Below are positions 1 to 63,642 of a stretch of 64,000 bases of DNA, one piece after another (the stretch's first letter is position 1; the number at the start of each line of letters is the position of its first letter). The position numbers and the translations under genes were made by a program. The stretch lies in NCBI RefSeq assembly GCF_055900595.2, contig NZ_CM148325.1; one strand, 5' to 3'. The notes beneath the pieces are model-generated. The model made no database searches, was not told the DNA's origin, and saw only the letters and a list, made by a program, of their open reading frames with translations.

Positions 1-1110
1 CCGGCCTCCCGTTCTCACCGTTTCGGCTGGCAGGCTGAAGAAGCGGTAGATATCGCTCGTAATCAGATTGCCGATCTGGTTGGCGCTGATCCGCGTGAAA
101 TTGTCTTTACCTCTGGTGCTACCGAATCTGACAACCTGGCGATCAAAGGTGCTGCTAACTTTTATCAGAAAAAAGGCAAGCACATCATCACCAGCAAAAC
201 CGAACACAAAGCGGTACTGGATACCTGCCGTCAACTGGAGCGCGAAGGTTTTGAAGTCACTTACCTGGCACCGCAGCGTAACGGTATTATCGACCTGAAA
301 GAACTCGAAGCAGCGATGCGTGATGACACCATCCTTGTTTCCATCATGCACGTAAATAACGAAATCGGCGTGGTGCAGGATATCGCGGCTATCGGTGAAA
401 TGTGCCGTGCTCGTGGCATTATCTATCACGTTGATGCAACCCAGAGCGTGGGCAAACTGCCTATCGACCTGAGCCAGTTGAAAGTTGACCTGATGTCTTT
501 CTCCGGTCACAAAATCTACGGCCCGAAAGGTATCGGTGCGCTGTATGTGCGTCGTAAACCGCGCGTACGTATCGAAGCACAAATGCACGGCGGCGGTCAC
601 GAGCGCGGTATGCGTTCCGGTACTCTGCCTGTTCACCAGATCGTCGGTATGGGCGAAGCCTATCGCATCGCAAAAGAAGAGATGGCGACCGAGATGGAAC
701 GTCTGCGCGGCCTGCGTAACCGTCTGTGGAACGGCATCAAAGATATCGAAGAAGTTTACCTGAACGGTGACCTGGAACACGGTGCGCCGAACATTCTCAA
801 CGTCAGCTTTAATTACGTTGAAGGTGAGTCGCTGATTATGGCGCTGAAAGACCTTGCGGTTTCTTCCGGTTCTGCCTGTACGTCAGCAAGCCTCGAACCG
901 TCCTACGTGCTGCGCGCGCTGGGGCTGAACGACGAGCTGGCACATAGCTCTATCCGTTTCTCTTTAGGTCGTTTTACTACTGAAGAAGAGATCGACTACA
1001 CCATCGAGTTAGTTCGTAAATCCATCGGTCGTCTGCGTGACCTTTCTCCGCTGTGGGAAATGTACAAGCAGGGCGTGGATCTGAACAGCATCGAATGGGC
1101 ACATCATTAA
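1..1110 (+). CDS. iscS: cysteine desulfurase IscS (5' end cut by window edge)
   Basis: Frame-1 translation from nt 1 (..[41 protein letters not shown]..) runs uninterrupted into ORF 316..1110; followed by iscU-iscA-hscBA-fdx in the conserved isc order. Confidence 0.93.
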
Positions 1111-1137
1111 TCGGTATCGGAATCAGGAGAATTTATA

Positions 1138-1524
1138 ATGGCTTACAGCGAAAAAGTTATCGATCATTACGAGAATCCACGTAACGTGGGTTCCTTTGAC
1201 AACAACGACGAGAACGTGGGCAGCGGCATGGTGGGTGCACCGGCCTGTGGCGACGTGATGAAGTTGCAGATTAAAGTCAACGATGAAGGTATCATTGAAG
1301 ACGCGCGTTTTAAAACTTACGGCTGCGGTTCCGCTATCGCTTCCAGCTCCCTGGTCACCGAATGGGTGAAAGGGAAGTCTCTCGACGAAGCACAGGCGAT
1401 CAAAAACACCGATATTGCTGAAGAACTTGAACTGCCGCCGGTGAAAATTCACTGTTCTATTCTGGCAGAAGACGCGATCAAAGCCGCCATTGCGGACTAT
1501 AAAAGCAAACGTGAAGCAAAATAA
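1138..1524 (+). CDS. iscU: Fe-S cluster scaffold protein IscU
   Basis: 128-aa ORF with conserved GAPACGDVMKL and YGCGSAIASSS motifs; AGGAG SD upstream. Confidence 0.95.
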   Translation: MAYSEKVIDHYENPRNVGSFDNNDENVGSGMVGAPACGDVMKLQIKVNDEGIIEDARFKTYGCGSAIASSSLVTEWVKGKSLDEAQAIKNTDIAEELELPPVKIHCSILAEDAIKAAIADYKSKREAK

Positions 1525-5068: not shown

Positions 5069-6352
5069 ATGACAGAAGCGATGAAGATTACCCTCTCGAC
5101 CCAACCTGCCGACGCGCGCTGGGGAGAAAAAGCAACTTACAGCATTAATAATGACGGCATTACCCTGCATTTGAACGGGGCAGACGATCTGGGGCTGATC
5201 CAGCGTGCGGCGCGCAAGATTGACGGTCTGGGCATCAAGCATGTTCAGCTAAGCGGTGATGGCTGGGATGCGGATCGTTGCTGGGCATTCTGGCAAGGTT
5301 ACAAAGCCCCGAAAGGCACGCGTAAAGTGGAGTGGCCGGATCTGGACGATGCCCAGCGTCAGGAATTGGATAACCGCCTGATGATCATCGACTGGGTGCG
5401 TGACACCATCAACGCACCGGCAGAAGAACTGGGGCCATCGCAACTGGCACAGCGTGCTGTTGATCTGATCAGCAACGTCGCAGGCGATCGTGTGACTTAC
5501 CGGATCACCAAAGGTGAAGATCTTCGTGATCAAGGTTATATGGGGCTGCACACTGTCGGGCGTGGTTCAGAACGTTCCCCGGTATTGCTGGCGCTGGATT
5601 ACAACCCAACTGGCGATAAAGAAGCGCCGGTGTACGCGTGCCTGGTAGGTAAAGGCATCACCTTTGATTCCGGCGGCTACAGCATCAAACAGACCGCGTT
5701 TATGGACTCAATGAAGTCTGACATGGGCGGTGCGGCAACGGTTACCGGGGCGCTGGCATTTGCCATTACGCGCGGTCTGAACAAGCGTGTGAAGCTGTTC
5801 CTCTGCTGTGCGGATAACCTGATTAGCGGCAACGCGTTCAAACTGGGGGATATCATTACCTATCGCAACGGTAAAAAAGTCGAAGTCATGAACACCGATG
5901 CGGAAGGGCGTCTGGTTCTGGCAGATGGCCTGATTGACGCCAGTGCGCAGAAACCGGAACTGATTATCGATGCCGCGACACTCACCGGTGCGGCGAAAAC
6001 CGCGCTGGGTAATGATTATCACGCGCTGTTCAGTTTTGACGATGCGTTGGCCGGTCGCCTACTGGAGAGTGCCGCCCAGGAGAACGAACCGTTCTGGCGT
6101 CTGCCGCTGGCGGAGTTCCACCGTAGCCAGCTGCCGTCTAACTTTGCGGAACTGAACAATACCGGAAGCGCGGCGTATCCGGCGGGTGCAAGTACGGCGG
6201 CGGGCTTCCTGTCGCACTTTGTTGAGAACTATAAACAAGGTTGGCTGCATATCGACTGTTCGGCGACTTACCGTAAAGCACCGGTTGAACAGTGGTCTGC
6301 GGGTGCGACCGGGCTGGGTGTGCGCACGATTGCTAATCTGTTAACGGCGTAA
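5069..6352 (+). CDS. pepB: peptidase B (M17 aminopeptidase)
   Basis: ORF 4982..6352; probable start MTEAMKITL at 5069; M17 leucyl aminopeptidase signature [12 protein letters not shown]. Confidence 0.9.
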
Positions 6353-6359
6353 ACTAATA

Positions 6360-6460
6360 TGCCGGATGCGGCGTAAACGCCTTATCCGGCTTACAAAGTA
6401 TTGTGAATTCAAAAAATTGCGATTCCCTTGTAGGCCTGATAAGCGTAGCGCATCAGGCAC
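6360..6460. repeat. REP/BIME-type extragenic palindromic elements
   Basis: Two imperfect palindromes of the GCCGGATGCGGCG..CGCCTTATCCGGC / TAGGCCTGATAAGCG..CGCATCAGGC type in the pepB-sseB intergenic region. Confidence 0.7.
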
Positions 6461-6494
6461 TTGTGCCCCGAACGTTGAATGAATTGTGGTTCTT

Positions 6495-7271
6495 ATGTCC
6501 GAAACAAAAAACGAACTTGAAGAGCTGCTGGAAAAAGCAGCAACTGAACCGGCGCACCGCCCGGCCTTTTTCCGTACTCTACTGGAATCCACTGTCTGGG
6601 TACCAGGTACGGCGGCGCAGGGCGAGGCAGTGGCTGAAGATAGCGCGCTTGATTTACAGCACTGGGAAAAAGAAGACGGTACCAGCGTCATTCCTTTTTT
6701 CACCTCGTTAGAAGCACTGCAACAGGCGGTTGAAGACGAACAGGCGTTTGTCGTAATGCCCGTTCGCACATTGTTTGAGATGACCCTTGGCGAAACGCTC
6801 TTCCTTAATGCCAAACTGCCAATCGGTAAAGAATTTATGCCGCGTGAAATCAGTTTGTTGATTGGTGAAGAAGGAAATCCGCTGAGTAGTCAGGAAGTAC
6901 TGGAAGGCGGCGAATCGCTGATATTATCGGAAGTCGCAGAGCCGCCAGCACAAATGATTGATTCACTTACCACCTTATTTAAAACCATTAAGCCGGTGAA
7001 GCGTGCTTTTATTTGTTCAATTAAAGAGAACGAAGAGGCACAGCCTAATTTACTTATTGGCATTGAAGCCGATGGCGATATCGAAGAAATTATTCAGGCG
7101 GCGGGAAGTGTAGCGACCGATACATTACCTGGTGATGAACCAATAGATATTTGCCAGGTGAAAAAAGGGGAAAAAGGAATTAGCCACTTTATTACCGAAC
7201 ATATTGCGCCATTCTATGAACGTCGTTGGGGTGGATTCCTGCGTGATTTTAAACAGAATCGAATAATTTAA
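6495..7271 (+). CDS. sseB: serine-sensitivity enhancing protein SseB
   Basis: ORF 6486..7271; start likely MSETKNELEEL at 6495; conserved position between pepB and sseA. Confidence 0.85.
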   Translation: MSETKNELEELLEKAATEPAHRPAFFRTLLESTVWVPGTAAQGEAVAEDSALDLQHWEKEDGTSVIPFFTSLEALQQAVEDEQAFVVMPVRTLFEMTLGETLFLNAKLPIGKEFMPREISLLIGEEGNPLSSQEVLEGGESLILSEVAEPPAQMIDSLTTLFKTIKPVKRAFICSIKENEEAQPNLLIGIEADGDIEEIIQAAGSVATDTLPGDEPIDICQVKKGEKGISHFITEHIAPFYERRWGGFLRDFKQNRII

Positions 7272-7720
7272 AATATGCCGCCCCAAAGGGCGGCATTCGG
7301 GCTTACTTGCTGTTCTGAAGGTTGTTAACCATCAGTAAATTGTTGCCGGAGGGACTCCGGTTATTATTTACCTCGGTTAACAGCGCACCAGAAACAATAA
7401 GTACGATACAGAAGCACCGTATCTTCATTGTGCGGTCCATGCGAAGACCGCATCACGACAGCACCACTGGCGATATTGCCGCGATAGCAAGCGCTGTGGG
7501 GTGCCTGCATTTACGGTCATGGAACATCCTTTCCTAAAGCCAGCGCCCGTTTGCGAGACGGCGAAAAGGGCCGTCACGAATAATACTCTCATATTTGAAT
7601 AATTACTCTATTTATTATCTTGACTTAGCCAGGCATAAAAGAGAGTATTTCAACACTGTGGGGTGCCTGCGTTGCTCCGGCAACACAAGTCAACCTGCTG
7701 GAAAGGCCGCGAACCAGACC
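7272..7720. ncRNA. ryfA: ryfA-like small RNA / possible type I toxin locus; strand and ends uncertain
   Basis: ~500 bp non-coding gap between convergent sseB and sseA, the conserved position of RyfA; flanked by hairpin terminators; contains a 15-bp direct repeat CTGTGGGGTGCCTGC (7494..7508 and 7656..7670) and a small hydrophobic ORF on the minus strand (7303..7440). Confidence 0.35.
7275..7296. terminator. hairpin terminator after sseB, possibly bidirectional
   Basis: Perfect 9-bp stem ATGCCGCCC / GGGCGGCAT with 4-nt loop; the minus strand has a U-rich run immediately after the stem. Confidence 0.55.
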
Positions 7721-42030: not shown

Positions 42031-43245
42031 ATGGAGAGTGACCCGATGCTGACCGATACCAAACTGAAAAACCTCAAAGCGCGGGAAAAACTTTATAAAG
42101 TTGCAGACCGTGATGGGCTGTATGTAACCGTATCTCCCAAGGGATTGGTGACGTTTCGCTATGACTATCGAATCAATGGTCGTCGTGAAACGTTAACTAT
42201 TGGTCGCTATGGTGACGGTATTTCTCTGGCGCAGGCGCGCGAAAAATTAGTGGAAGCCAAAAAACGCGTAAATGCAGGAATATCGCCCGCTGGAGAGAAG
42301 CGTGACGGTAAAACAAAGCGAAAAGAAGAAAAGACACTCCACGATTTTACCGTCAGCTACATGAAACACACCCGGCTGGCGGACAGCACAAGGGCGATGA
42401 AGCAAAGCATTATCGACAGAGACATCACGCCAGTATGGGGGCGCAAGCTGCTGTCAGAGATAACCCCCTCTCTCCTACGTGAGTATTGCGACAAGATAAA
42501 AGCGCGTGGTGCGCCAGCGACGGCGATTCAGGTTCGCAATATCGTTAGTGCGGTATTTAAGTTCGCCGCGCTTCACGGCGACTATTACCCCAATCCTGCC
42601 GAAGAGGTTTTACCGGCTTCAATTGCGACATTCGAAGCGCGCGACAGGGCGCTCAAGCCAGAGGAGATAGGCTGGTTTTTCAATCAGCTTGAACAAACGG
42701 GTACATTACCCACCATCAAGCTGGCCATTAAATTGGTTTTATTAACGATGGTACGTAAAAGTGAACTGCTGAACGCTCCGTGGGGTGAGGTTAATTTTAA
42801 TGCCTGCCTTTGGACGATTGACGCCAGCCGGATGAAGGGATCACGGGATCATAATGTTTATCTGTCCCGGCAGGCACAGGACATTCTGATTGCCCTGAAA
42901 ATGTGCGCAGGAAGCAGTGATTGGGTTTTGCCTTCATGCAATCAGTCGTCGCATAAGACCATGTCGGCGGCGACCTTAAACCGGGTCATTAATCTTACGG
43001 TTAAGCAGGCGCAGGAACGGGGGATCAGGCTGGCGTCGTTTTCCGTTCACGATATGCGCCGAACGGCATCGACGTTATTGCATGAGGCGGGGTTTAATTC
43101 CGACTGGATAGAAAAATGCCTCGCGCACGAGGAAAGAAGCGTCAGAGCCGTTTATAACAAAGCGGAATACGCAGAGCAGCGCCGTGATATGTTGCAGCAG
43201 TGGGCGGATATGGTTGATGGGTGGATCAAGCAATACCGCCCGTAA
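42031..43245 (+). CDS. int: tyrosine-type site-specific integrase (P4-like family)
   Basis: 404-aa ORF; N-terminal LTDTKLKNLKAREKLYKVADRDGLYVTV arm-binding type sequence and C-terminal catalytic region (HDMRRTASTLL..CLAHEE..VYN); alternative start ATG 42046. Confidence 0.9.
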   Translation: MESDPMLTDTKLKNLKAREKLYKVADRDGLYVTVSPKGLVTFRYDYRINGRRETLTIGRYGDGISLAQAREKLVEAKKRVNAGISPAGEKRDGKTKRKEEKTLHDFTVSYMKHTRLADSTRAMKQSIIDRDITPVWGRKLLSEITPSLLREYCDKIKARGAPATAIQVRNIVSAVFKFAALHGDYYPNPAEEVLPASIATFEARDRALKPEEIGWFFNQLEQTGTLPTIKLAIKLVLLTMVRKSELLNAPWGEVNFNACLWTIDASRMKGSRDHNVYLSRQAQDILIALKMCAGSSDWVLPSCNQSSHKTMSAATLNRVINLTVKQAQERGIRLASFSVHDMRRTASTLLHEAGFNSDWIEKCLAHEERSVRAVYNKAEYAEQRRDMLQQWADMVDGWIKQYRP

Positions 43246-43248
43246 GTA

Positions 43249-43503
43249 CTATGCGGGGATCTTGGTACCAGAGCGCTTTGGGACTTTGGCCAGATTTTTC
43301 TGTACCGCGTTATCAATATGGTGATGGTTATTTTCCTGCCGTGCTTTGAGCCAGCGTTCCACTTCCTCTTTGTCCCACGCGACGGCGCGCTTCGTTAGCG
43401 CAAAACGTTTGGGAAACAGGCCTTTTTGCTCCAACGCATAAATCGTACTTTCAGAGAGTGGCACCATCTGTAAAAGCACGTTTTTTCTAATGGCAATTTT
43501 CAT
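43249..43503 (-). CDS. AlpA/Vis-family phage transcriptional regulator (excisionase-like)
   Basis: 84-aa ORF resembling AlpA (..LSESTIYALEQKGLFPKRFALTKRAVAWDKEEVERWL..); adjacent to and divergent from int. Confidence 0.75.
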   Translation of the reverse strand: MKIAIRKNVLLQMVPLSESTIYALEQKGLFPKRFALTKRAVAWDKEEVERWLKARQENNHHHIDNAVQKNLAKVPKRSGTKIPA

Positions 43504-44314
43504 TGTTTATTCCTTTAATCCAAAGGCACTCAGTTCTGATAACAGATCCTTTTTTACCAGCAGCGGCAGATTGCTTTGTCTCTTTACGCCAGCCGGTTAG
43601 CAAATCGTTATACATTTCGGTGTCGTAGCCGCTGATAACCACGCTTCCTTGTAACCGGGTGACGGTCTCCAGTAAGCGCAGGTGGGCACCATCGTCCATT
43701 TCGTGGCGATAATATTTGTTAGTCAGATTACGGGTGCTATGAACATACGGCGGATCGACAAAATGCAGCGTGTCGGCGGCGTCATGATCCAGAATACACT
43801 GGATGGCATCGCGGTTTTCCACCAGAACCCCTTCAAAACGCTGACCAACGGCGGCCAGATTATCGGGCATACGGCTCCAGATGTGTTGGGCCGTTCCACT
43901 GGCGCGTTTAGTGTCCAGCCGAAAGCCGGTAGTGCCTTTAGTTGCCCCGGCAGAACCGAAGCCCATCGTGGCGCGAATCACTAAACGCCTTGCCTGTTCA
44001 ACAGAATTTTTCCCATAGCGATAGGCCGAAATAAACTCGGTGCGGGAATAGGGTGTCAGGCTGCAGGCTTCAACCAGTCTTTCGCGCAGTTGTGGGGTAC
44101 GAAGAACGGCGAACAGGTTAACGACGTCGCCATCCAGATCGTTGTAAACCTCGGCGTAGCTACGTGGTTTTCTGAGCAGTACGCTGGCTGCACCGCCGAA
44201 GGGTTCCACATAGCATCTGTGGGCCGGAAAGTGGCTAATGATCCACGGAGCTAGTCGCCACTTGCCGCCGTGGTAGCGGATTGCAGGGTGCTTAATCATC
44301 CAGTTTTTCTCCAC
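43487..44314 (-). CDS. Dam-family DNA N6-adenine methyltransferase (paralog 1)
   Basis: 275-aa ORF with N-terminal YHGGK..RCYVEPFGGAAS AdoMet motif and catalytic DPPY motif. Confidence 0.8.
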   Translation of the reverse strand: MEKNWMIKHPAIRYHGGKWRLAPWIISHFPAHRCYVEPFGGAASVLLRKPRSYAEVYNDLDGDVVNLFAVLRTPQLRERLVEACSLTPYSRTEFISAYRYGKNSVEQARRLVIRATMGFGSAGATKGTTGFRLDTKRASGTAQHIWSRMPDNLAAVGQRFEGVLVENRDAIQCILDHDAADTLHFVDPPYVHSTRNLTNKYYRHEMDDGAHLRLLETVTRLQGSVVISGYDTEMYNDLLTGWRKETKQSAAAGKKGSVIRTECLWIKGINNENCH

Positions 44315-48201: not shown

Positions 48202-48540
48202 ATGAAAGAATTTGGCATCCGTTTGAAGGAAGAACGTATCCGACTTGGCCTTGATCAAGACGGCTTTGGACAACTTGGGGGCGTGAAGAAAAACGCACAA
48301 AGTAACTATGAGAATGGACTGCGCAAGCCGGACAGTGACTATCTTGCTGGCATAGCGGCAGCGGGAGTTGATGTTCTGTATGTTCTAACAGGCAACCGCA
48401 CGCCTGTGGCTACGTTGTCCAGTAAAGAGAGTGTGTTGGTGGAGAACTATCGTTCTGCTACGCCAGAACACCAGTCCACCCTTGACACGGTTAGCGCTGC
48501 GCTTGCGCAACCGGGAGTAGGGAAAGCAGCTAAGGGATAA
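48202..48540 (+). CDS. XRE-family helix-turn-helix transcriptional regulator (Cro/CI-like)
   Basis: 112-aa ORF with classic HTH_XRE N-terminus (FGIRLKEERIRLGLDQDGFGQLGGVKKNAQSNYENGLRKPDSDYLAGIA); divergent from ogr. Confidence 0.8.
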   Translation: MKEFGIRLKEERIRLGLDQDGFGQLGGVKKNAQSNYENGLRKPDSDYLAGIAAAGVDVLYVLTGNRTPVATLSSKESVLVENYRSATPEHQSTLDTVSAALAQPGVGKAAKG

Positions 48541-48580
48541 CGAGTAGAATGAATTTGGTTATTGTCTGTATGGAGGCAAA

Positions 48581-49153
48581 ATGAAGTTGAATAATCTGGT
48601 TGCTCTTTACAGGAACATGACAGAGCAAAAATTGGATAGGGTTAAATTCCCATACAGACACAATAATTTACATTTTGATGTATTTTTCTTTATTGATGGA
48701 AAACCGTTTGAGCTTCTTTTCGGAGCATTAGGCGCTAATCTTTGCTTTCGTCTAAAAGTCGAGAAGGGATTCGTCATAAATCCTAATCTGGGAAGTGAGA
48801 CTTATAAAGAATTATGCAAGGCGCTAGGTTTGAAATATGACCCTGCCAATCCATTTAGAACAAGTAAGTTTTTTGAAGATTTTGATGGGAAAATCCCTAC
48901 ATCGGTTACTGTTAAGAATAAGGCAAAATATACTGATATTGCTGTGCATGTCAGGGATGTTGAAGAAGCAGACAGAATATATTTCTGTGGATGGAAAAAC
49001 AACAATGAAGAAAAGAGTCATGTTACTGAAGATAATTTAAAGAAAACGAAAGAGTTTTTAGGGTATCAGGCTTTTCTTGTTTGTAAGGAAAAGAATATTA
49101 GCAGTAGATGGACTGATTTAGAAAATAAAGCAAAAGATTTTTATTTACCATAG
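48581..49153 (+). CDS. hypothetical protein (cargo gene 1, no recognisable domain)
   Basis: 190-aa ORF with strong SD GGAGG; A+T-rich, Lys/Asn-rich; first gene of compact operon. Confidence 0.6.
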   Translation: MKLNNLVALYRNMTEQKLDRVKFPYRHNNLHFDVFFFIDGKPFELLFGALGANLCFRLKVEKGFVINPNLGSETYKELCKALGLKYDPANPFRTSKFFEDFDGKIPTSVTVKNKAKYTDIAVHVRDVEEADRIYFCGWKNNNEEKSHVTEDNLKKTKEFLGYQAFLVCKEKNISSRWTDLENKAKDFYLP

Positions 49154-49167
49154 GATTGTGAGGTTAT

Positions 49168-50316
49168 ATGTCTGATATTTCATTAGGGTGCGTGGTTGTT
49201 CATAGGTTGATAAAAGAGCAACATAAAGATTTCGATCACTCAAAACCATATAGTCGCCGTGATACGGTTCTTGACCGAAATAATGAAATCGTAATTAAAC
49301 TAGTGTCCAGTATAGCCGCATTGTATGGTAAAAAATCTAATAGCTCGCATTATGGTATATTTAATTTAGATGAAACACGCAGGGGGCCTTTTCCAGCGGA
49401 ATTTGATAAATATCGGAATGATACATCCAAGAAGTTAGACGATGAATTGTTTATAGGATTATCAAAAAATGTTATGCATCAGTTATATATTGAGGCAAAG
49501 GATCGACCTGCTGCATCAGGAGGATTACTTCTTTTTGCTGATTATATCAGTAAATCCGTGCGTTACTTTCTTATTGCAATGATTAAGCAAAAGGAAGGTA
49601 TAGTTATTAGTGATAAATTAGAGCCAAAGGAGTTAGAGCATCTTGATCTGGCAAAACTAAACCAGGCGGCACGAATAAACTATGATTTGTATGATAAATA
49701 TATTTCCGCTGATGAGAATGAAAGACAGGATGTTAATTATTTAAGTTTTGTTAGTCCCAGTTCTAACCAGACAACTTCAGGGTATTTCATTACTGCCTTA
49801 GGTTGTGATAAAGGTAATACATCAACTAAAGCTACGAGTAATTTAATTAATGAATCTTTTAACTTCTTCAGAAATCATCAAGAATTAAAGGATAATGCCC
49901 GTAAATTTAAAAATGAAATTATTGAGTATTTATTCGATTGTTCTGAAAATAACATTTCAGCTAAGCTCTCTGTTGTTAGTGAGATGGCGGCGAAGCATAT
50001 GGTTAATTTAGAAGATGACATTAAAGATAAATTGTCAGAAGAATTATATGCTCATTTGAATAGTGAAAGTATTCGTGTGCCTGTGGAATTTAGGGTAAGC
50101 AAATCAGTAGTTAAGAAAAACAGAAATATTAAATATACAAGTGATAATGTTAATTTTGAGTTTAAATCTAGTTTACTAGGCAATACTCTTGATAATGAGA
50201 TATGCTATAATAAGAAAACTGGACATTTAACTTTTACTCGGATTACTCCTGAGAAAAAAAGTGAAATAGCTCAATTGCTTGATGAGTTAATAAAAGAAAG
50301 AAATAGCGAAAAATAA
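49168..50316 (+). CDS. NdpA/YejK-like nucleoid-associated protein homolog (cargo gene 2)
   Basis: 382-aa ORF, SD GTGAGG; collinear similarity to E. coli YejK recalled from memory (VVVHRLIKEQH vs IALHQLIKRDE; GGLLLFADY..VRYFLIAMI vs GGxVLFCHY..VEYLLVAVL). Confidence 0.55.
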   Translation: MSDISLGCVVVHRLIKEQHKDFDHSKPYSRRDTVLDRNNEIVIKLVSSIAALYGKKSNSSHYGIFNLDETRRGPFPAEFDKYRNDTSKKLDDELFIGLSKNVMHQLYIEAKDRPAASGGLLLFADYISKSVRYFLIAMIKQKEGIVISDKLEPKELEHLDLAKLNQAARINYDLYDKYISADENERQDVNYLSFVSPSSNQTTSGYFITALGCDKGNTSTKATSNLINESFNFFRNHQELKDNARKFKNEIIEYLFDCSENNISAKLSVVSEMAAKHMVNLEDDIKDKLSEELYAHLNSESIRVPVEFRVSKSVVKKNRNIKYTSDNVNFEFKSSLLGNTLDNEICYNKKTGHLTFTRITPEKKSEIAQLLDELIKERNSEK

Positions 50317-50318
50317 GG

Positions 50319-50957
50319 TTGCTTAATATGTCATGTTTTGAAACGGTTGTTGAGCTTTTCAGATATGTAGGGCGTCCTAAATTTGATGCTATTAATAATC
50401 GTTTTTCAGCAACTATTTCTTATGATGCTCATATATATGAACTCTTAGTTTCTTTGCAACCTCATACAGCGTGGGGAGAAATTGAAGAGATTGTCATTGA
50501 TGATGTGGATATAGATGTTGATGATAGCCTTCCCGCTAAAGGAACATCAATAACACTGACAATCTCTATATCAACTGGAGCTAGTGAGTCATTTTTTATC
50601 GATATTAAAGATCTAATTCAAAAGTCTCCGATGTTAAATAGAGGTATTTTAAGAAAGTCTTTTTACTTGGTTGAGGAAGATTTTTATTTTAATGAAGGAA
50701 TGGTTGAGGGATTAGCAAAAATACCAGAACTATCTGTTTTAAAGAATCTTTGTGATTTTATTTTATGTCTATCAAAAGTTGCACACTACAGCAATAGTAA
50801 AAGTGATGATGTATGCCATAAGTTAGTTTTCTTGAAAAATACTAATGCTAAGTCATTACCTTTAATTATTGAAACTAATGTTGATTATTCACTTCTTTTA
50901 ACAGGTATTAAGGATTTAAAAATCATCGAATCTTTTTCTGATGAAAAAAAGCTATAA
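50319..50957 (+). CDS. hypothetical protein (cargo gene 3)
   Basis: 212-aa ORF beginning 2 bp after the preceding stop; acidic, no recognisable domain. Confidence 0.55.
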   Translation: MLNMSCFETVVELFRYVGRPKFDAINNRFSATISYDAHIYELLVSLQPHTAWGEIEEIVIDDVDIDVDDSLPAKGTSITLTISISTGASESFFIDIKDLIQKSPMLNRGILRKSFYLVEEDFYFNEGMVEGLAKIPELSVLKNLCDFILCLSKVAHYSNSKSDDVCHKLVFLKNTNAKSLPLIIETNVDYSLLLTGIKDLKIIESFSDEKKL

Positions 50958-51001
50958 CGGATGATAATTATTTTGAGCGAAAAGGGATTTTCATTAATAC
51001 G

Positions 51002-51583
51002 GTGGTCGATTTTCTTGAATCAATCGATGTAAAGAAACAGTTTCATTTTTTATTCTGTGAGTGGGATGAATTTCTAAAACTATACCATAATAACCTCGGT
51101 GTATATCTTAGTGGTTTTTCATTTCATAAAGTAAGAAAGGAAGTGGCAGAGGCAGAAGCTAATTTAGCTGAGCGTTTTTCAAAAATAATGTCAGACATGA
51201 TAGCTAAGCTTTTAGGTATTCCTGTTTCTTTGGTTGCTACTTTTGGCATGATAAAATTAAATACCCTGCCGGAAATGTTAGTGGTTTTTTTAGGTGTATT
51301 GCTCACGTCGATAATTATGTTTTTTATTGTAAGAAGTCAATACACACAGTTTAGGATGATTTGTGATGCTAAAGATATTATATTTTCCCCATTAGTGAAA
51401 AAATCTGTAGGTTATACAGAAGATTTGAAAAAATTAGTATGCAATGCAAAGGATAATTTAGACAAAAATCAGGTCATGTTAAATCGTTACCTTCTTTTCT
51501 TTCAATGCTTATGCTGGATTCCGACAGCCTTAGGTGGTGGAATGATCTTAATGGCTATTATGGTTCATTTAGGATTACTATAA
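51002..51583 (+). CDS. predicted membrane protein (cargo gene 4)
   Basis: 193-aa ORF with apparent GTG start; hydrophobic segments (IPVSLVATFGMIKL.., MLVVFLGVLLTSIIMFFIV, ..CWIPTALGGGMILMAIMVHLGLL); 3' end overlaps convergent gene D by 6 bp; start codon uncertain. Confidence 0.45.
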   Translation: MVDFLESIDVKKQFHFLFCEWDEFLKLYHNNLGVYLSGFSFHKVRKEVAEAEANLAERFSKIMSDMIAKLLGIPVSLVATFGMIKLNTLPEMLVVFLGVLLTSIIMFFIVRSQYTQFRMICDAKDIIFSPLVKKSVGYTEDLKKLVCNAKDNLDKNQVMLNRYLLFFQCLCWIPTALGGGMILMAIMVHLGLL

Positions 51584-58204: not shown

Positions 58205-58963
58205 TTAATTCAGGATAATCAGTTCTGATGTGGTGCTGGCTGGCTTTCCACCTACGGTATAGCGAATCCCTACCGTTGAGAATGTCAGGCCGTGGAAGAT
58301 ATCGCGCATTTCCGGGATGTCGTTAACCGAGATAATCATCCGGCCCTGCATGGTGCGCGCCAGCTCTGCCATACGCTGGTACTGCTCAAGGCCAAATGGT
58401 ACGCCGTAGCCTTCGGTTTTCCAGTATGGTGGGTCGCAGTAGAACAGGGTATGCGGGCGGTCATAGCGGCGAATACAGTCGGCCCAGTCCAGATTTTCAA
58501 TGCAGACGCGCGCCAGCCGCAGATGGGCGGCGGATAAATCCTCTTCCATACGCAGCAGGTTCAGGCGCGGCGGTGAGGTGGTGGCGGTACCGAACGTGCG
58601 ACTTTCCACTTTGCCGCCGAATGCCAGCTTTTGCAGATAGTAGAAGCGCGCCGCGCGCTGGATATCGGTCAGCGTTTCTTCCGGGGTGATCTGGAGCCAG
58701 CGGTACATTTCGCGGCTGACCAGCGACCATTTAAACTGGCGGACAAACTCTTCTAAATGGTGCTGAAGTACGCGGTAGAGGTTGGTAACGTCACCGTTGA
58801 TATCGTTCAGCACCTCGGCCTGTGCGGGCTGTTTCATAAAGAACAACGCTGCCGCCCCGCAGAACGGTTCAACGTAGCAGCGGTGTTTGGGAAACAGTGG
58901 CAGAATGTGTTTTGCCAGCCTGCGCTTACCGCCGATCCACGGAATAACGGGTAACGTATTCAA
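58205..58963 (-). CDS. Dam-family DNA N6-adenine methyltransferase (paralog 2), moron between G and FI
   Basis: 252-aa ORF with IGGK..RCYVEPFCGAAA and DPPY motifs; start overlaps upstream stop (ATGA). Confidence 0.8.
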   Translation of the reverse strand: MNTLPVIPWIGGKRRLAKHILPLFPKHRCYVEPFCGAAALFFMKQPAQAEVLNDINGDVTNLYRVLQHHLEEFVRQFKWSLVSREMYRWLQITPEETLTDIQRAARFYYLQKLAFGGKVESRTFGTATTSPPRLNLLRMEEDLSAAHLRLARVCIENLDWADCIRRYDRPHTLFYCDPPYWKTEGYGVPFGLEQYQRMAELARTMQGRMIISVNDIPEMRDIFHGLTFSTVGIRYTVGGKPASTTSELIILN

Positions 58964-59418
58964 ATTGTCAATTTTCCAGACCGACTGCTGACCAACGCAT
59001 ACAGCAGATTAGGAGACCAGCGCCAACTATCGCGCAGGTGCAGAAATTCGGCGCAGAACTCGCTGCAAAACAGGCGTTCCTGTTTACCCTGACTGAGTAA
59101 CACAAAACCCATGGCGCCCAGCCAGTCGTAACCTTTATCGTCGTGCTGACGAAAAAAGGTTTCCAGTGCCAGCGGATCGGCGTTGATCGGGAGTAAATCC
59201 CATTTCTCAATCGGCAGCGGCATTCGTTTGCTGCGCACGCCTTTATCCCGTACCGATGATGAGTAACAGATAAACAGGCCATCCGGCAGGCGTTCGACCA
59301 GTTCGCAGTGAGAGTAAGGGCCGCGCGTGACCTGTCGCGTCAACCAGTCGGAGAGCCGGGCAAGGCTGAAAAAGCGTTCAGCCCGGCCACGGTAGAACGC
59401 CATGTAAACCTGACTCAT
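58960..59418 (-). CDS. hypothetical protein (moron gene at Z/fun position)
   Basis: ORF 58960..59427; start likely MSQVYMAF at 59418 giving an ATGA overlap with the G stop; Cys/His-containing, no recognised domain. Confidence 0.55.
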   Translation of the reverse strand: MSQVYMAFYRGRAERFFSLARLSDWLTRQVTRGPYSHCELVERLPDGLFICYSSSVRDKGVRSKRMPLPIEKWDLLPINADPLALETFFRQHDDKGYDWLGAMGFVLLSQGKQERLFCSEFCAEFLHLRDSWRWSPNLLYALVSSRSGKLTI

Positions 59419-60122
59419 GGTTGCCATCCTGATGAGTAGTCGTAACCCATAACCGCCTGCACCTCCGTCAACGCTTCAACGGCGGCAATATGCTGCTGGG
59501 CAGCGGCGAACAGGCGCATATCGTGCGCCATTGTTTCGGTTTCAAACCGGGCGGCGATCTCGTTGGTTAGTTCAATCAGGTTGTGATTTTTGGTCTGCCA
59601 CATTAAGCCTGCCGGTATTTGTTTAGCCACGCCCATTTTGGTGAGCGAGAGCTGCTGGATGCGGCTGTTAGCGTCGCTGTGGAAATGGTGATTATCGATG
59701 ATGATGTAGTCAGCGGTGATTCGATCGCGATACTGCTTTATTTCTGCCACCTTTGCCTGTCGGGCTTTTTCGATATCGGGCTGCCAGCGTTTGCCGTCCC
59801 AACGGACAAAGGCGTTATCGGGCTTCAGCAGAGTGACGTTATCCGGCAATGGCCCCAGATGATGAAGCTGTACCTCACTGCCCGCATCGGTATCAAACGC
59901 GGTTTTACCGCGATGATCTTCTACCGCAAGCCATGTTTCTCCGTTGAATGTCAGGGCAAAGCCGCTCTGGCATTCGGGCGGTTCGATAGTGGTACAGCAT
60001 TCCGGTAAGCCGGTGTTGGGGGCGATATAGGCGTCGCTGACGCCGATAAATTCCTGAGTATCTGCCGCGTAGTTAAAGATGCGCAGGGTTTGCGGTTCGT
60101 CGGAAAATGCGAATGTGCTCAT
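59415..60122 (-). CDS. tail fiber assembly protein (gpG-like)
   Basis: 235-aa ORF immediately downstream of tail fiber H with ATGA overlap. Confidence 0.75.
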
Positions 60123-61780
60123 GCCAGCCTCACGATATAGTTGAAAGCGATATTTTTAACGGTGTTTTCGGTGTTCCCGGCGGCATTCACCGTAATAGTG
60201 TGGCTGTGGGAACCCAAGGCGATAGCGTGGTTATGCGCGCCGATAGTCAGCGAATGGGTATGAGCGCCGATGGCTACTGTGTGAGTATGGACACCGTCTG
60301 TACTGGTTCTGAATTTGTAGTTATCCCAGTCTGTGTCTGCAGACCCCTGATTATTACGGGTACTGTCGAAGTAACCGTGACGTCCACCGCTGGCTTCACC
60401 CCATCCGCTGTCGTGGTTGTGAGCACCGGCTGACGCTGTTGATTTTGTCCCGTAGTCAAACGCGCTGGTATTTTTAGTACCCAAATCGGTGGAACTGGCA
60501 GTTTTAGTGCCTAAATCTGTGTTAGTGGCGCTGGCTGTGTGACTATGAGATTTAACGCCATCCTGTTCCTGAGACAGTATCGAGCGTCCGCTGGCGGGTT
60601 TCCCCTTGATTGTCCAGCCGCGCATATCCGGGATTACCCCAGAGGGGTAAGCGATTGCCAGTTTAGGGTAGGCGGTTTTATTGAAGGACTGACCGACCAT
60701 CAGGGCGTAGCCGCTGGGGATTGCATCGGATGACCACGGTATCGGCGTGCCGACCGGACAGGTTTCCGCCGCCAGCGCTTTGTCTACTGCCGCTTTCACC
60801 GCCTTGGGCGTGGCGGCCAGTGTTTCGCTGGTGCTGTCGATGGCGCTACTAAGCTGGACAATCCCTTTACGCGCCGTGGTGGCATCCTGCGCGGTATATT
60901 TGCCATTAGCCATATCGTAGGCCGCTTTCACCGCCTTGGGCGTGGCGGCCAGTGTTTCGCTGGTGCTGTCGATGGCGCTACTAAGCTGGACAATCCCTTT
61001 ACGCGCCGTGGTGGCATCCTGAGCGGTATATTTGCCATTAGCCATATCGTAGGCCGCTTTCACCGCCTTGGGCGTGGCGGCCAGCGTTTCGCTGATACTG
61101 TCGATGGAGCTACTAAGCTGGACAATCCCTTTACGTGAGGTGGTGGCATCCAGTGCGGTATATTTTCCATTAGCCAGATCGTAGGCTGCTTTCACTGCTT
61201 TGGGCGTGGCGGCCAGTGTTTCGCTGATGCTGTTGGTCGCACTGCTTAATTGAGTAAAACCTTTGGCAGTTAACGTGGCGTCAGGATGGTTACGGGACTG
61301 CACGTGGCACGTCAGGCTTTCATCCACATACTGTCTTGTTGCCAGCACCACGGCAGGGTCGATTTTCAGCTCCACGTTTTCCGTATGGGAGACAATCAGC
61401 ACCATGCGGATAATCTGCGTGCGGCCCGAACCTTCGATTAACTGCGGCTTGTAGGTTGGCGGGCAGTTGCCGACGGCAATCAGCCGGTCGTGCTCGTCGT
61501 ACAGGCCAATTTCTCTGATCCACCATCCGCCTACATCCTCCGGTAGTACCTGTTCGGCAATAATCTGGTTGGGGTTGTTAGGGTCAATACTGAGCGTATT
61601 CAGCGGCGCACGTCGGCGTTCGTTGATTAACCGGGTTTGGCCAGTCTCCGGTGTTGGCAGGTTACCGTTTCCGTCGCCCACGGCCATTTGCGTCAGATGA
61701 AGAGGTGAACCCTGTGCGGTGGCGGTCGCCAGCGCGGATTCGCCGGTAGTGGTTAATAGCGTGAAATAGGTAGCGCTCAT
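60119..61780 (-). CDS. tail fiber protein (gpH-like)
   Basis: 553-aa ORF; conserved P2 H-type N-terminus (..[24 protein letters not shown]..) and repetitive, variable C-terminal half. Confidence 0.88.
60790..61250 (-). repeat. about 3.5 tandem copies of a 132-bp (44-aa) coding repeat within tail fiber gene H
   Basis: Near-identical units begin at 60790, 60922 and 61054 with a diverged partial unit from 61186; encode ..[44 protein letters not shown].. Confidence 0.85.
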
Positions 61781-62391
61781 GGGGCGATCCTTAGCGTATC
61801 AATCAGATGCAGCGCAGCCCCGCGGTAGTTACGGCCCACGCTGTATACATGTTCGGGAATAAAGGGATAAACGGTGAGCGTATCGCCGGTATAGTTCGTC
61901 GCGCTGAACCAGACGTATCCGTTGCTCTGCAGGCTGATCGCCAGTCCGATTAAGTGGCGTGAACAGGGTTTGGCATCATCGATCAGGCGCTCCAGCTCCA
62001 CATACATCTGCTCGGTGATGCCCTGTTCGCGCACGCCGACCTCCAGTGCGAAGGTGCCGGGAATACCTTCCGGGCGCAGTTGCCACCATTCGGTTACCCG
62101 GATAAGGAAACCGAGCGGTTCCACCGCACGTTGCAGTGCGCCGATGGTGCCTTTGTGCTGATGGATGTAGAAAGAGGCGGCAATCACCTGCCGCTTGGTA
62201 TCGACTGGCCAGTTTTCATCCCAGCGGTCAACGGAAAACGCCCATGCCAGATAAGGCAACAGCGCGGCGGGGCAGCTACCCGGTTGCCACAAGCTACGCA
62301 GCGGGACTGGCACTTGTTCAGTCAGGCTGCCGGTTTGTGCCAGATTCTGCTCCAGCGGGCTGGCATTGTTGGGGAGCAGGGAGCTATTCAT
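61777..62391 (-). CDS. baseplate protein (gpI-like)
   Basis: ORF 61777..62460; probable start [14 protein letters not shown] at 62391 just after the J stop. Confidence 0.8.
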
Positions 62392-63295
62392 CGCTTCCCC
62401 CGATGGCAATTTTCCATCCGGTGCAGTAGCTGGCCTGCGTTTTGTTGATAATGACATCAACGGCAGGGGAGAGCAGTTCTACGCGCTGAACACCGGTGAC
62501 ATGCAGTGCGGCGTAAATCGCGCTGCGGCGAATATCACGCCCGATCCGATGCTGGTCATTAACGTAGCTTTTTAGCCGCTGCTCGGCGGCCTGCCGAATG
62601 GGTTCCTGCTCCGGGCCAGGATAGCAATAAAGTACGGCATCAATCTGATATGGGATCACTTCGGCGGACTGAATGGTTGGGCGATCACCTACCGGACGAA
62701 TATCAATATCGTTCAGGGCGGAATCGACTATCGCCAGCAGTTCTGCGCTGGCCAGCCCGTTGCCTTCGCGGGAGAGTACCGACACGGTGACGTAACAAGG
62801 ATAGGGGCTGATAGCGGAGACGTCTGCGATACGCCCGTCTGCGCTGCGGGCGTGATATTCGTAGGCGGCGGTCGGGCCTGCGACGGACAGACCTTCAAAC
62901 GCCTGCTGTGCGCGCATTCGTAAATCGCTGTCGGATTCATAAACCGGATCAACGGGCGGTATCGCCGTACTGTCTCCGGGCGAAATTTGCAGGCGAAAAA
63001 CCTTAAAGTTAGCGACCAGATTATCCAGATCGCGCCCGGCGGCATGGGCCAGCATATTAGCAACGGCGGCTTCATTGATGCGTACCCGCAGCGCCATCTC
63101 TAAGTAAGTATTTTCCTGCAACAGCTTGACGAAGGGTTCTGATTCATAGCCCAGTGTGCGGGTAACTTCTGCTTGCTGTTCGGCAGGATACAGGCTGATA
63201 AAGCGCTGCTTGCGGGCGGTTAGCAGGGTTTCAAAATCGACTGTTTCCACCACATCGGGGATCGGTAATTGGCTTAAATCGGTCAGTGCGCTCAT
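62384..63295 (-). CDS. baseplate protein (gpJ-like)
   Basis: ORF 62384..63331; start likely MSALTDLSQLP at 63295 forming an ATGA overlap with the W stop. Confidence 0.85.
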   Translation of the reverse strand: MSALTDLSQLPIPDVVETVDFETLLTARKQRFISLYPAEQQAEVTRTLGYESEPFVKLLQENTYLEMALRVRINEAAVANMLAHAAGRDLDNLVANFKVFRLQISPGDSTAIPPVDPVYESDSDLRMRAQQAFEGLSVAGPTAAYEYHARSADGRIADVSAISPYPCYVTVSVLSREGNGLASAELLAIVDSALNDIDIRPVGDRPTIQSAEVIPYQIDAVLYCYPGPEQEPIRQAAEQRLKSYVNDQHRIGRDIRRSAIYAALHVTGVQRVELLSPAVDVIINKTQASYCTGWKIAIGGSDE

Positions 63296-63642
63296 GGACG
63301 TCTCCTGTCGATTGGAATGGAGAATGTCCACGGCTGGCCGGGGATATCGGTACGTTCGGCTTCAATAGTGACGCTAAGATCGGCATTATCCGCAGCAAAG
63401 TCCACACCGATAATCTCGATGCGGGGTTCCCAGCGCGTCAGCGCCATGACCACTGCCGACATCACCCGTAGCCGGGTAGCGCCATCGTTGGGCTGGTCGA
63501 TCAGGTTGCCGATCAGTGAGCCATAATCGCGACGCATCACGCGCGTACCTACCGGCGTGGTCAAAATATCTTTTACGGATTGCTTAATGTGCAACTCGTC
63601 GCTTAACACTCTGCCGGTTTCAGCGTTCATACCGAGGTACAT
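63292..63642 (-). CDS. baseplate wedge protein (gpW-like)
   Basis: 116-aa ORF in P2 order between V and J. Confidence 0.85.
   Translation of the reverse strand: MYLGMNAETGRVLSDELHIKQSVKDILTTPVGTRVMRRDYGSLIGNLIDQPNDGATRLRVMSAVVMALTRWEPRIEIIGVDFAADNADLSVTIEAERTDIPGQPWTFSIPIDRRRP

Follow-up and report, generated by a model that had tools for sequence, protein, structure and literature searches.

A 132-bp tandem repeat within the tail fibre gene of a P2-like E. coli prophage very probably encodes four Phage_fiber_2 modules of the fibre shaft, the inner units of which have recently been duplicated or homogenised. The repeat lies in a 64,000-nucleotide stretch of the NCBI RefSeq assembly GCF_055900595.2 (contig NZ_CM148325.1), referred to here as the window. 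Tandem Repeats Finder places the array at 60789..61233, with a period of 132, 3.4 copies, 94% matches, no indels and a score of 778. A repeat search likewise recovers three in-register copies of 212 nt at a spacing of 132 nt, with identities of 100, 98 and 87%, so the place and period given in the initial annotation are right. The array stands far above chance expectation. It is contained within a 553-codon open reading frame on the minus strand (60119..61780) and, when read in frame, resolves into four 44-codon units.

The first of these, U1 (61145..61276, minus strand, aa 169–212), is a diverged full unit that matches U2 at 100 and U3 at 102 of 132 nt, an identity of ~76%. U2 (61013..61144, minus strand, aa 213–256) and U3 (60881..61012, minus strand, aa 257–300) are equal at 124 of 132 nt, and the codons that differ between them comprise four synonymous and three non-synonymous changes. 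The repeated part of U4 spans 60788..60880 (minus strand, aa 301–331); its full 44-aa frame runs from 60880 to 60749, departs from the repeat after the first 92 nt and leads into the collar. Across those 92 nt U4 is the same as U3, silent sites included, and U3 forms part of the longest exact repeat within the gene, which is 101 nt. Pfam recognises U4 as the fourth Phage_fiber_2 match. The initial annotation, which counted three full units plus a diverged one, was therefore slightly generous: two of the units are full and near-identical, one is partial (92 nt) and one is full but diverged.

The reading frame encodes a 553-aa tail fibre of the P2 gpH type, in agreement with its original designation as gene H. 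Its first 150 residues (61331..61780, minus strand) form a Phage_tail_fib domain for baseplate attachment (PF12571, E 3.6e-62, profile covered 1–150 of 150). The gene lies between gpI and a tail-fibre assembly gene, and tblastn against Peduovirus P2 aligns aa 24–319 with P2 gpH at 71.6% identity (E 6e-127). The shaft follows, with four matched stretches of PF03406 (Phage_fiber_2; 246.8 bits against a cut-off of 22, E 6.9e-75) at an exact spacing of 44 aa. The remaining 215 residues (aa 339–553; 60122..60766, minus strand) form a collar (PF07484, E 2.7e-9) and a receptor-binding tip resembling that of T4 gp37, and align with chain residues 27–242 of the T4 long tail fiber protein P37 (PDB 2XGF, E 3.2e-67). 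This tip lies outside the repeat. It contains six HxH motifs, starting at aa 412, 454, 498, 507, 516 and 525 and spanning aa 412–527. HxH motifs bind iron in T4 gp37.

Set against the two reference fibres, the protein is mosaic: its attachment domain is of the P2 type, its shaft is modular and its tip is of the T4 gp37 type. Mosaics of this sort have been recognised in tail fibres for a long time. P2 gpH shares the succession of a Phage_tail_fib domain and Phage_fiber_2 repeats, and the same gene order, but its C-terminal third differs: the same tblastn comparison finds no similarity to P2 gpH beyond aa 319, where the present fibre carries the T4 gp37-type collar and tip. The T4 tip, in turn, aligns end to end, including the collar, the HxH repeats and an 11-residue C-terminal stretch, whereas the central stretch that separates the HxH boxes shows no sequence relationship, and outside the tip the protein resembles P2 and not T4. 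A DNA search of cultured phages returned no close phage, only short matches of ~75–80% identity to lambda stf-type genes.

The genes on either side fit this assignment. Upstream, H adjoins the baseplate gene gpI (61777..62460, minus strand; Pfam Tail_P2_I, E 4e-51), for which the coordinates given are those of the longest open reading frame and relatives annotate 204–210 aa. Downstream, the stop of H is overlapped by a 235-aa tail-fibre assembly (chaperone) gene (59415..60122, minus strand) that matches Pfam Caudo_TAP and DUF4376 and the tail fiber assembly family phrog_105 of PHROG (E 1e-43). The same-strand order is baseplate J, gpI, H, the Caudo_TAP/DUF4376 assembly gene, a 155-aa open reading frame, a Dam-type methyltransferase and the tail sheath gene, and annotated relatives keep the order J, I, H and assembly gene. 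Similarity to prophage-free E. coli genomes stops at ~41822, directly after guaA, and a tyrosine integrase gene (42031..43245, plus strand) follows this junction. Judged from gene content, the host element is a P2-like E. coli prophage inserted after guaA. Related prophages occupy the same guaA site in GMF054, L725 and CEC15.

Several other features of the element were recorded alongside the fibre. Two adenine methyltransferase genes of the D12 class (Dam-like) are present in the prophage, at 43487..44314 and 58205..58963, both on the minus strand. The second of these, together with the 155-aa open reading frame (58960..59427, PHROG phrog_1128), sits between the assembly gene and the sheath gene. 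In P2, the slot between the tail-fibre assembly and sheath genes holds the non-essential cargo Z/fun. A further block between the replication genes and the tail genes (48202..51583, plus strand) encodes an HTH protein, a DUF6037 protein, an NA37-type nucleoid-associated protein and two further open reading frames (50319..50957 and 51002..51583), these last two having no Pfam or PADLOC match. On the nearby cargo genes PADLOC returned only methyltransferase matches, plus one weak match of an HTH protein to RmrA. From its position and content, the block could be an unrecognised defence or cargo island. Past the end of the window, the related loci L003 to L011 carry a HicA/HicB toxin–antitoxin pair (locus positions ~838..1434) between tail genes S and V. 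The same slot is occupied by an 'abortive phage resistance protein' in L725 and by a hypothetical protein in GMF054; since its contents differ among relatives, it is a variable cargo site.

As a protein feature, the array is ordinary and already catalogued: these are Phage_fiber_2 repeats in a P2 gpH-type fibre, and the exact protein is in public databases, where it is named tail fiber protein. Members of PF03406 include lambda Stf, StfR of E. coli K-12, Mu gpS and collagen-like proteins of E. coli O157 prophages, and the repeat has been described under the name Pf2 in lambda Stf and O157 prophage fibres (PMC3368898). Elsewhere in the family the motif occurs once per fibre or at intervals of 56 or 100 aa; here it is strictly tandem at 44 aa and near-identical at the DNA level. 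Our homologue set consisted of the best 120 sequences from the protein search and cluster members added later. The 122 homologues that carry at least two motifs keep a strict 44-aa spacing, with some fibres showing 56 or 100 aa instead, which bears out the earlier reading of a reiterated 44-aa shaft motif. Copy number ranges from 1 to 8 among full-length homologues. Of the 122, 32 contain two or more unit cores that are 100% identical to each other, so near-identical adjacent units are common in the family.

Given the strict period and the family annotation, each unit would correspond to one serial segment of a trimeric shaft. Literature searches returned no specific account of how the Pf2 unit is built. 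Chains of Mu S (PDB 5YVQ and 8JU3) align to one unit, as does a fibre chain of phiTE, and the papers on these two phages give no description of the segment in question. An AlphaFold2 monomer model built from a 29-sequence alignment (mean pLDDT 43) reached mostly 70–90 only in the N-terminal domain and was rejected as a model of the shaft, as its pLDDT stays below 50 from aa 162 on.

The distribution of differences among the units indicates how they came to be alike. U1 differs from U3 by 12 synonymous codons, and U3 and U4 show no difference in 92 nt; because this identity extends to silent sites, it points to recent duplication or conversion. U1 itself is orthologous across alleles, matching the U1 of GMF054 and L725 at 83–84 of 92 nt and any other unit at 64–70 of 92. 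The inner units behave differently. In the complete genome of L725, whose fibre gene flanks are ~95% identical to those of the window, U2 equals U3 at 92 of 92 nt, and U3 of the window matches U2 of L725 at only 88 of 92. Duplicated units within a genome are thus closer to each other than are corresponding units between genomes, which argues for a recent duplication or homogenisation of the inner units that took place separately in each of the two lineages. This step and the likely assembly origin of much copy-number variation, taken up below, are the two points that go beyond the catalogued family membership. In GMF054 the three units are clearly diverged from each other.

The near-identity of the units could instead be ancient and held in place by strong purifying selection on the protein. 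The motif core does show strong conservation in the family, many of its alignment columns being invariant, as this explanation would expect. Such selection sits poorly with U3 and U4 agreeing at every silent site over 92 nt while U1 and U3 differ at 12 synonymous codons, and with the 4 of 92 nt that separate orthologous units of L725 from those of the window, when the duplicates inside either genome show no difference at all. We regard it as scarcely plausible beside recent duplication or homogenisation of the inner units.

Two further alleles deserve mention for their form. The L725 fibre gene (positions 6001..7644 of its locus, L002) contains an exact internal repeat of 257 nt with a period of 132, compared with 101 nt in the window, and this exceeds what most short reads resolve. 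A close allele of 627 aa found on 135 contigs (P0005) has the same N-terminal part, U1, U2 and gp37-like tip as the window; its third unit is diverged, and ~150 additional aa separate that unit from the collar, an example of module insertion at the end of the array. The central segment of the tip is also what distinguishes close alleles such as the 553-aa and 547-aa forms. Many homologues cover only ~60% of the query, having kept the N-terminal part and repeats and swapped their C-terminal parts. Tail-fibre genes evolve as mosaics through exchange at shared motifs according to Sandmeier (1994, Mol Microbiol 12:343), as cited in PMC8986868. The present family resembles that picture in its kept N-terminal part and repeats and its swapped C-terminal parts, but mosaicism of this type concerns exchange of the distal module, whereas the variation considered here is in how many units the array contains.

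The four-copy array in the window is itself real. The exact 553-aa protein is carried by 186 contigs, and the index lists 191 blocks, five of them with contigs longer than 1 Mb. In three fetched loci, which include the complete genome AP025754.1 (5.36 Mb) and a 4.39 Mb contig, the array is base-for-base the same. Its presence on 186 contigs, chromosome-sized ones among them, means that the array is not an artefact. Over-expansion or a misjoin during assembly, for which nothing speaks except the general difficulty of assembling tandem repeats, is next to inconceivable given the recurrence of the same protein in independent assemblies and a longest exact repeat of 101 nt, which is resolvable by reads of at least 150 nt.

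The variation around this form is another matter. We compared prophages whose 6 kb flanks differ from the window by 0–2 substitutions and at most one 1-nt deletion. Within this set the fibre occurs as a four-copy protein of 553 aa (186 contigs), a three-copy protein of 509 aa (30 contigs for P0136 and 1 for its V91 variant, P0001), a two-copy protein of 465 aa (three junction variants, in Logan only) and a one-copy protein of 421 aa (13 contigs, against 7 in the cluster table). Logan contigs contain each 31-mer only once, by construction (PMC12424806). It follows that neither a four-copy nor a three-copy array can be represented there, and that a two-copy contig is the expected collapsed picture. 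Consistent with this, the exact four-copy protein has no Logan source. In a k-mer test, the two-copy allele of L012 had no 31-mer that is missing from the four-copy gene. The three-copy alleles of L003 and L005 contained no novel k-mers up to k=101, and that of L004 none up to at least k=55; the two three-copy forms are exactly both possible walks of a collapsed loop. Following the k-mer test and the account of the Logan method, the series of 4, 3, 2 and 1 copies was dropped as a clean allelic series for the two- and three-copy forms. Most of the apparent copy-number series is indistinguishable from assembly collapse, and the three- and two-copy alleles are unproven.

Taken to its limit, the same reasoning would make the array stable and all copy differences among near-identical relatives artefacts of loop collapse in de Bruijn graphs. 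The Logan constraint, the confinement of the two-copy alleles to Logan, the want of novel k-mers in L012 and the three-copy alleles, and the frequent breaking of contigs within the array all lean this way. The one-copy allele does not conform to it. There the head of U1 is joined to the tail of U4, and three 31-mers at the junction are absent from the four-copy gene; the allele is present in NCBI assemblies and in two Logan runs. The recombinant units of L013 and L014 contain 20 and 3 novel 31-mers, respectively. These 31-mers, like those of the one-copy junction, must derive from reads. Diverged complete genomes also differ in copy number, with three in GMF054 against four in L725, and units are more alike within genomes than between them. 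Complete stability of the array is accordingly unlikely, although it retains more weight than any other alternative considered here. These novel k-mers mean that recombination inside the array does occur, and one full contraction or more is probably genuine. The earlier proposal of expansion and contraction thus stands in part: unit homogenisation, the one-copy allele and the recombinant units speak for it, and most of the copy series cannot be separated from collapse.

The background of the one-copy allele qualifies its meaning. In loci L006 to L009 a single T is missing at about codon 7 of gpW (locus position ~2159; gpW of the window is 63292..63642, minus strand), a frameshift that shifts the called start. 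The set with this frameshift includes the complete genome AP025754.1 and all one-copy fibre alleles, and suggests a defective prophage lineage. Because the one-copy allele is found only in the background with the 1-nt deletion in gpW, it may reflect a defective prophage in decay and not variation that serves a function.

A more ambitious reading would make the array a contingency locus, in which units are frequently and reversibly gained and lost, so that fibre length is tuned to how deep the surface layers of the host are and adsorption or host range changes as a result. Recombinant and deleted alleles do occur in nearly identical prophages, and copy number in the family extends from 1 to 8. 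An exact look-up of seven modelled five-, six- and seven-copy proteins, however, returned none in the collection, so that no alleles of five or more copies were found. The only well-supported contraction is in the prophage with the frameshifted gpW, and the receptor-binding tip lies outside the repeat. We consider a contingency locus of this kind improbable by a wide margin. The narrower idea of a length dial, by which reversible gain and loss of whole units would alter the reach of the tip and adapt the phage or a tailocin-like derivative to the depth of O-antigen or capsule, seems to us equally improbable. A literature search on tail-fibre repeat copy number and host range found nothing specific. 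Look-ups of two modelled alleles with a converted U2 and of one three-copy form were likewise without an exact match in the collection.

The evidence as a whole is most consistent with an array that encodes four Phage_fiber_2 modules, each of 44 residues per chain, as the middle shaft of a putative trimeric fibre. The conserved P2 gpH N-terminal domain would dock on the baseplate, the modular shaft would come next, and the T4 gp37-type collar and His-rich tip would bind the receptor, with the chaperone encoded downstream helping the tip to fold. The DNA identity of the inner units very probably stems from recent in-frame duplication or recombinational homogenisation rather than from selection on the protein. 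Tandem repeats are unstable in E. coli, and unequal crossing-over or replication slippage between the 132-bp direct repeats was probably the mechanism. The same process could delete units and give rise to fibres that differ by whole modules. Both this mechanism and any effect on fibre length or adsorption are inferred.

The repeat also leaves a clear mark on assemblies, confirming the initial annotation's expectation that it would confound short reads. Within the 90% protein cluster, many 'partial' proteins of 222–303 aa end in U2–U3 or start in U3–U4, breaking inside the array, and one more short entry, of 193 aa, begins just beyond it. One scaffold (L016) has a gap of 100 N within the array. 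A 226-aa protein on 39 contigs that starts inside U4 (P0123) was considered as evidence of a disrupted gene and rejected: in L015 the four-copy gene is intact and only its gene call is short, and in L016 the protein adjoins the scaffold gap. In protein databases this one fibre protein is consequently represented by many truncated fragments and by short alleles that are probably false, and much of the copy-number variation recorded there is likely a product of assembly. Unless long reads back it, a difference in copy number seen in draft assemblies or Logan contigs should not be given a biological meaning.

The value of the finding is thus mostly practical, in that short-read assemblies break, gap or collapse in the fibre gene. 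For the biology of these phages, the array adds one more case in which the modules of a phage fibre have evolved in concert. Phage engineers would be interested in a link between adsorption and the number of shaft modules, if such a link is real.
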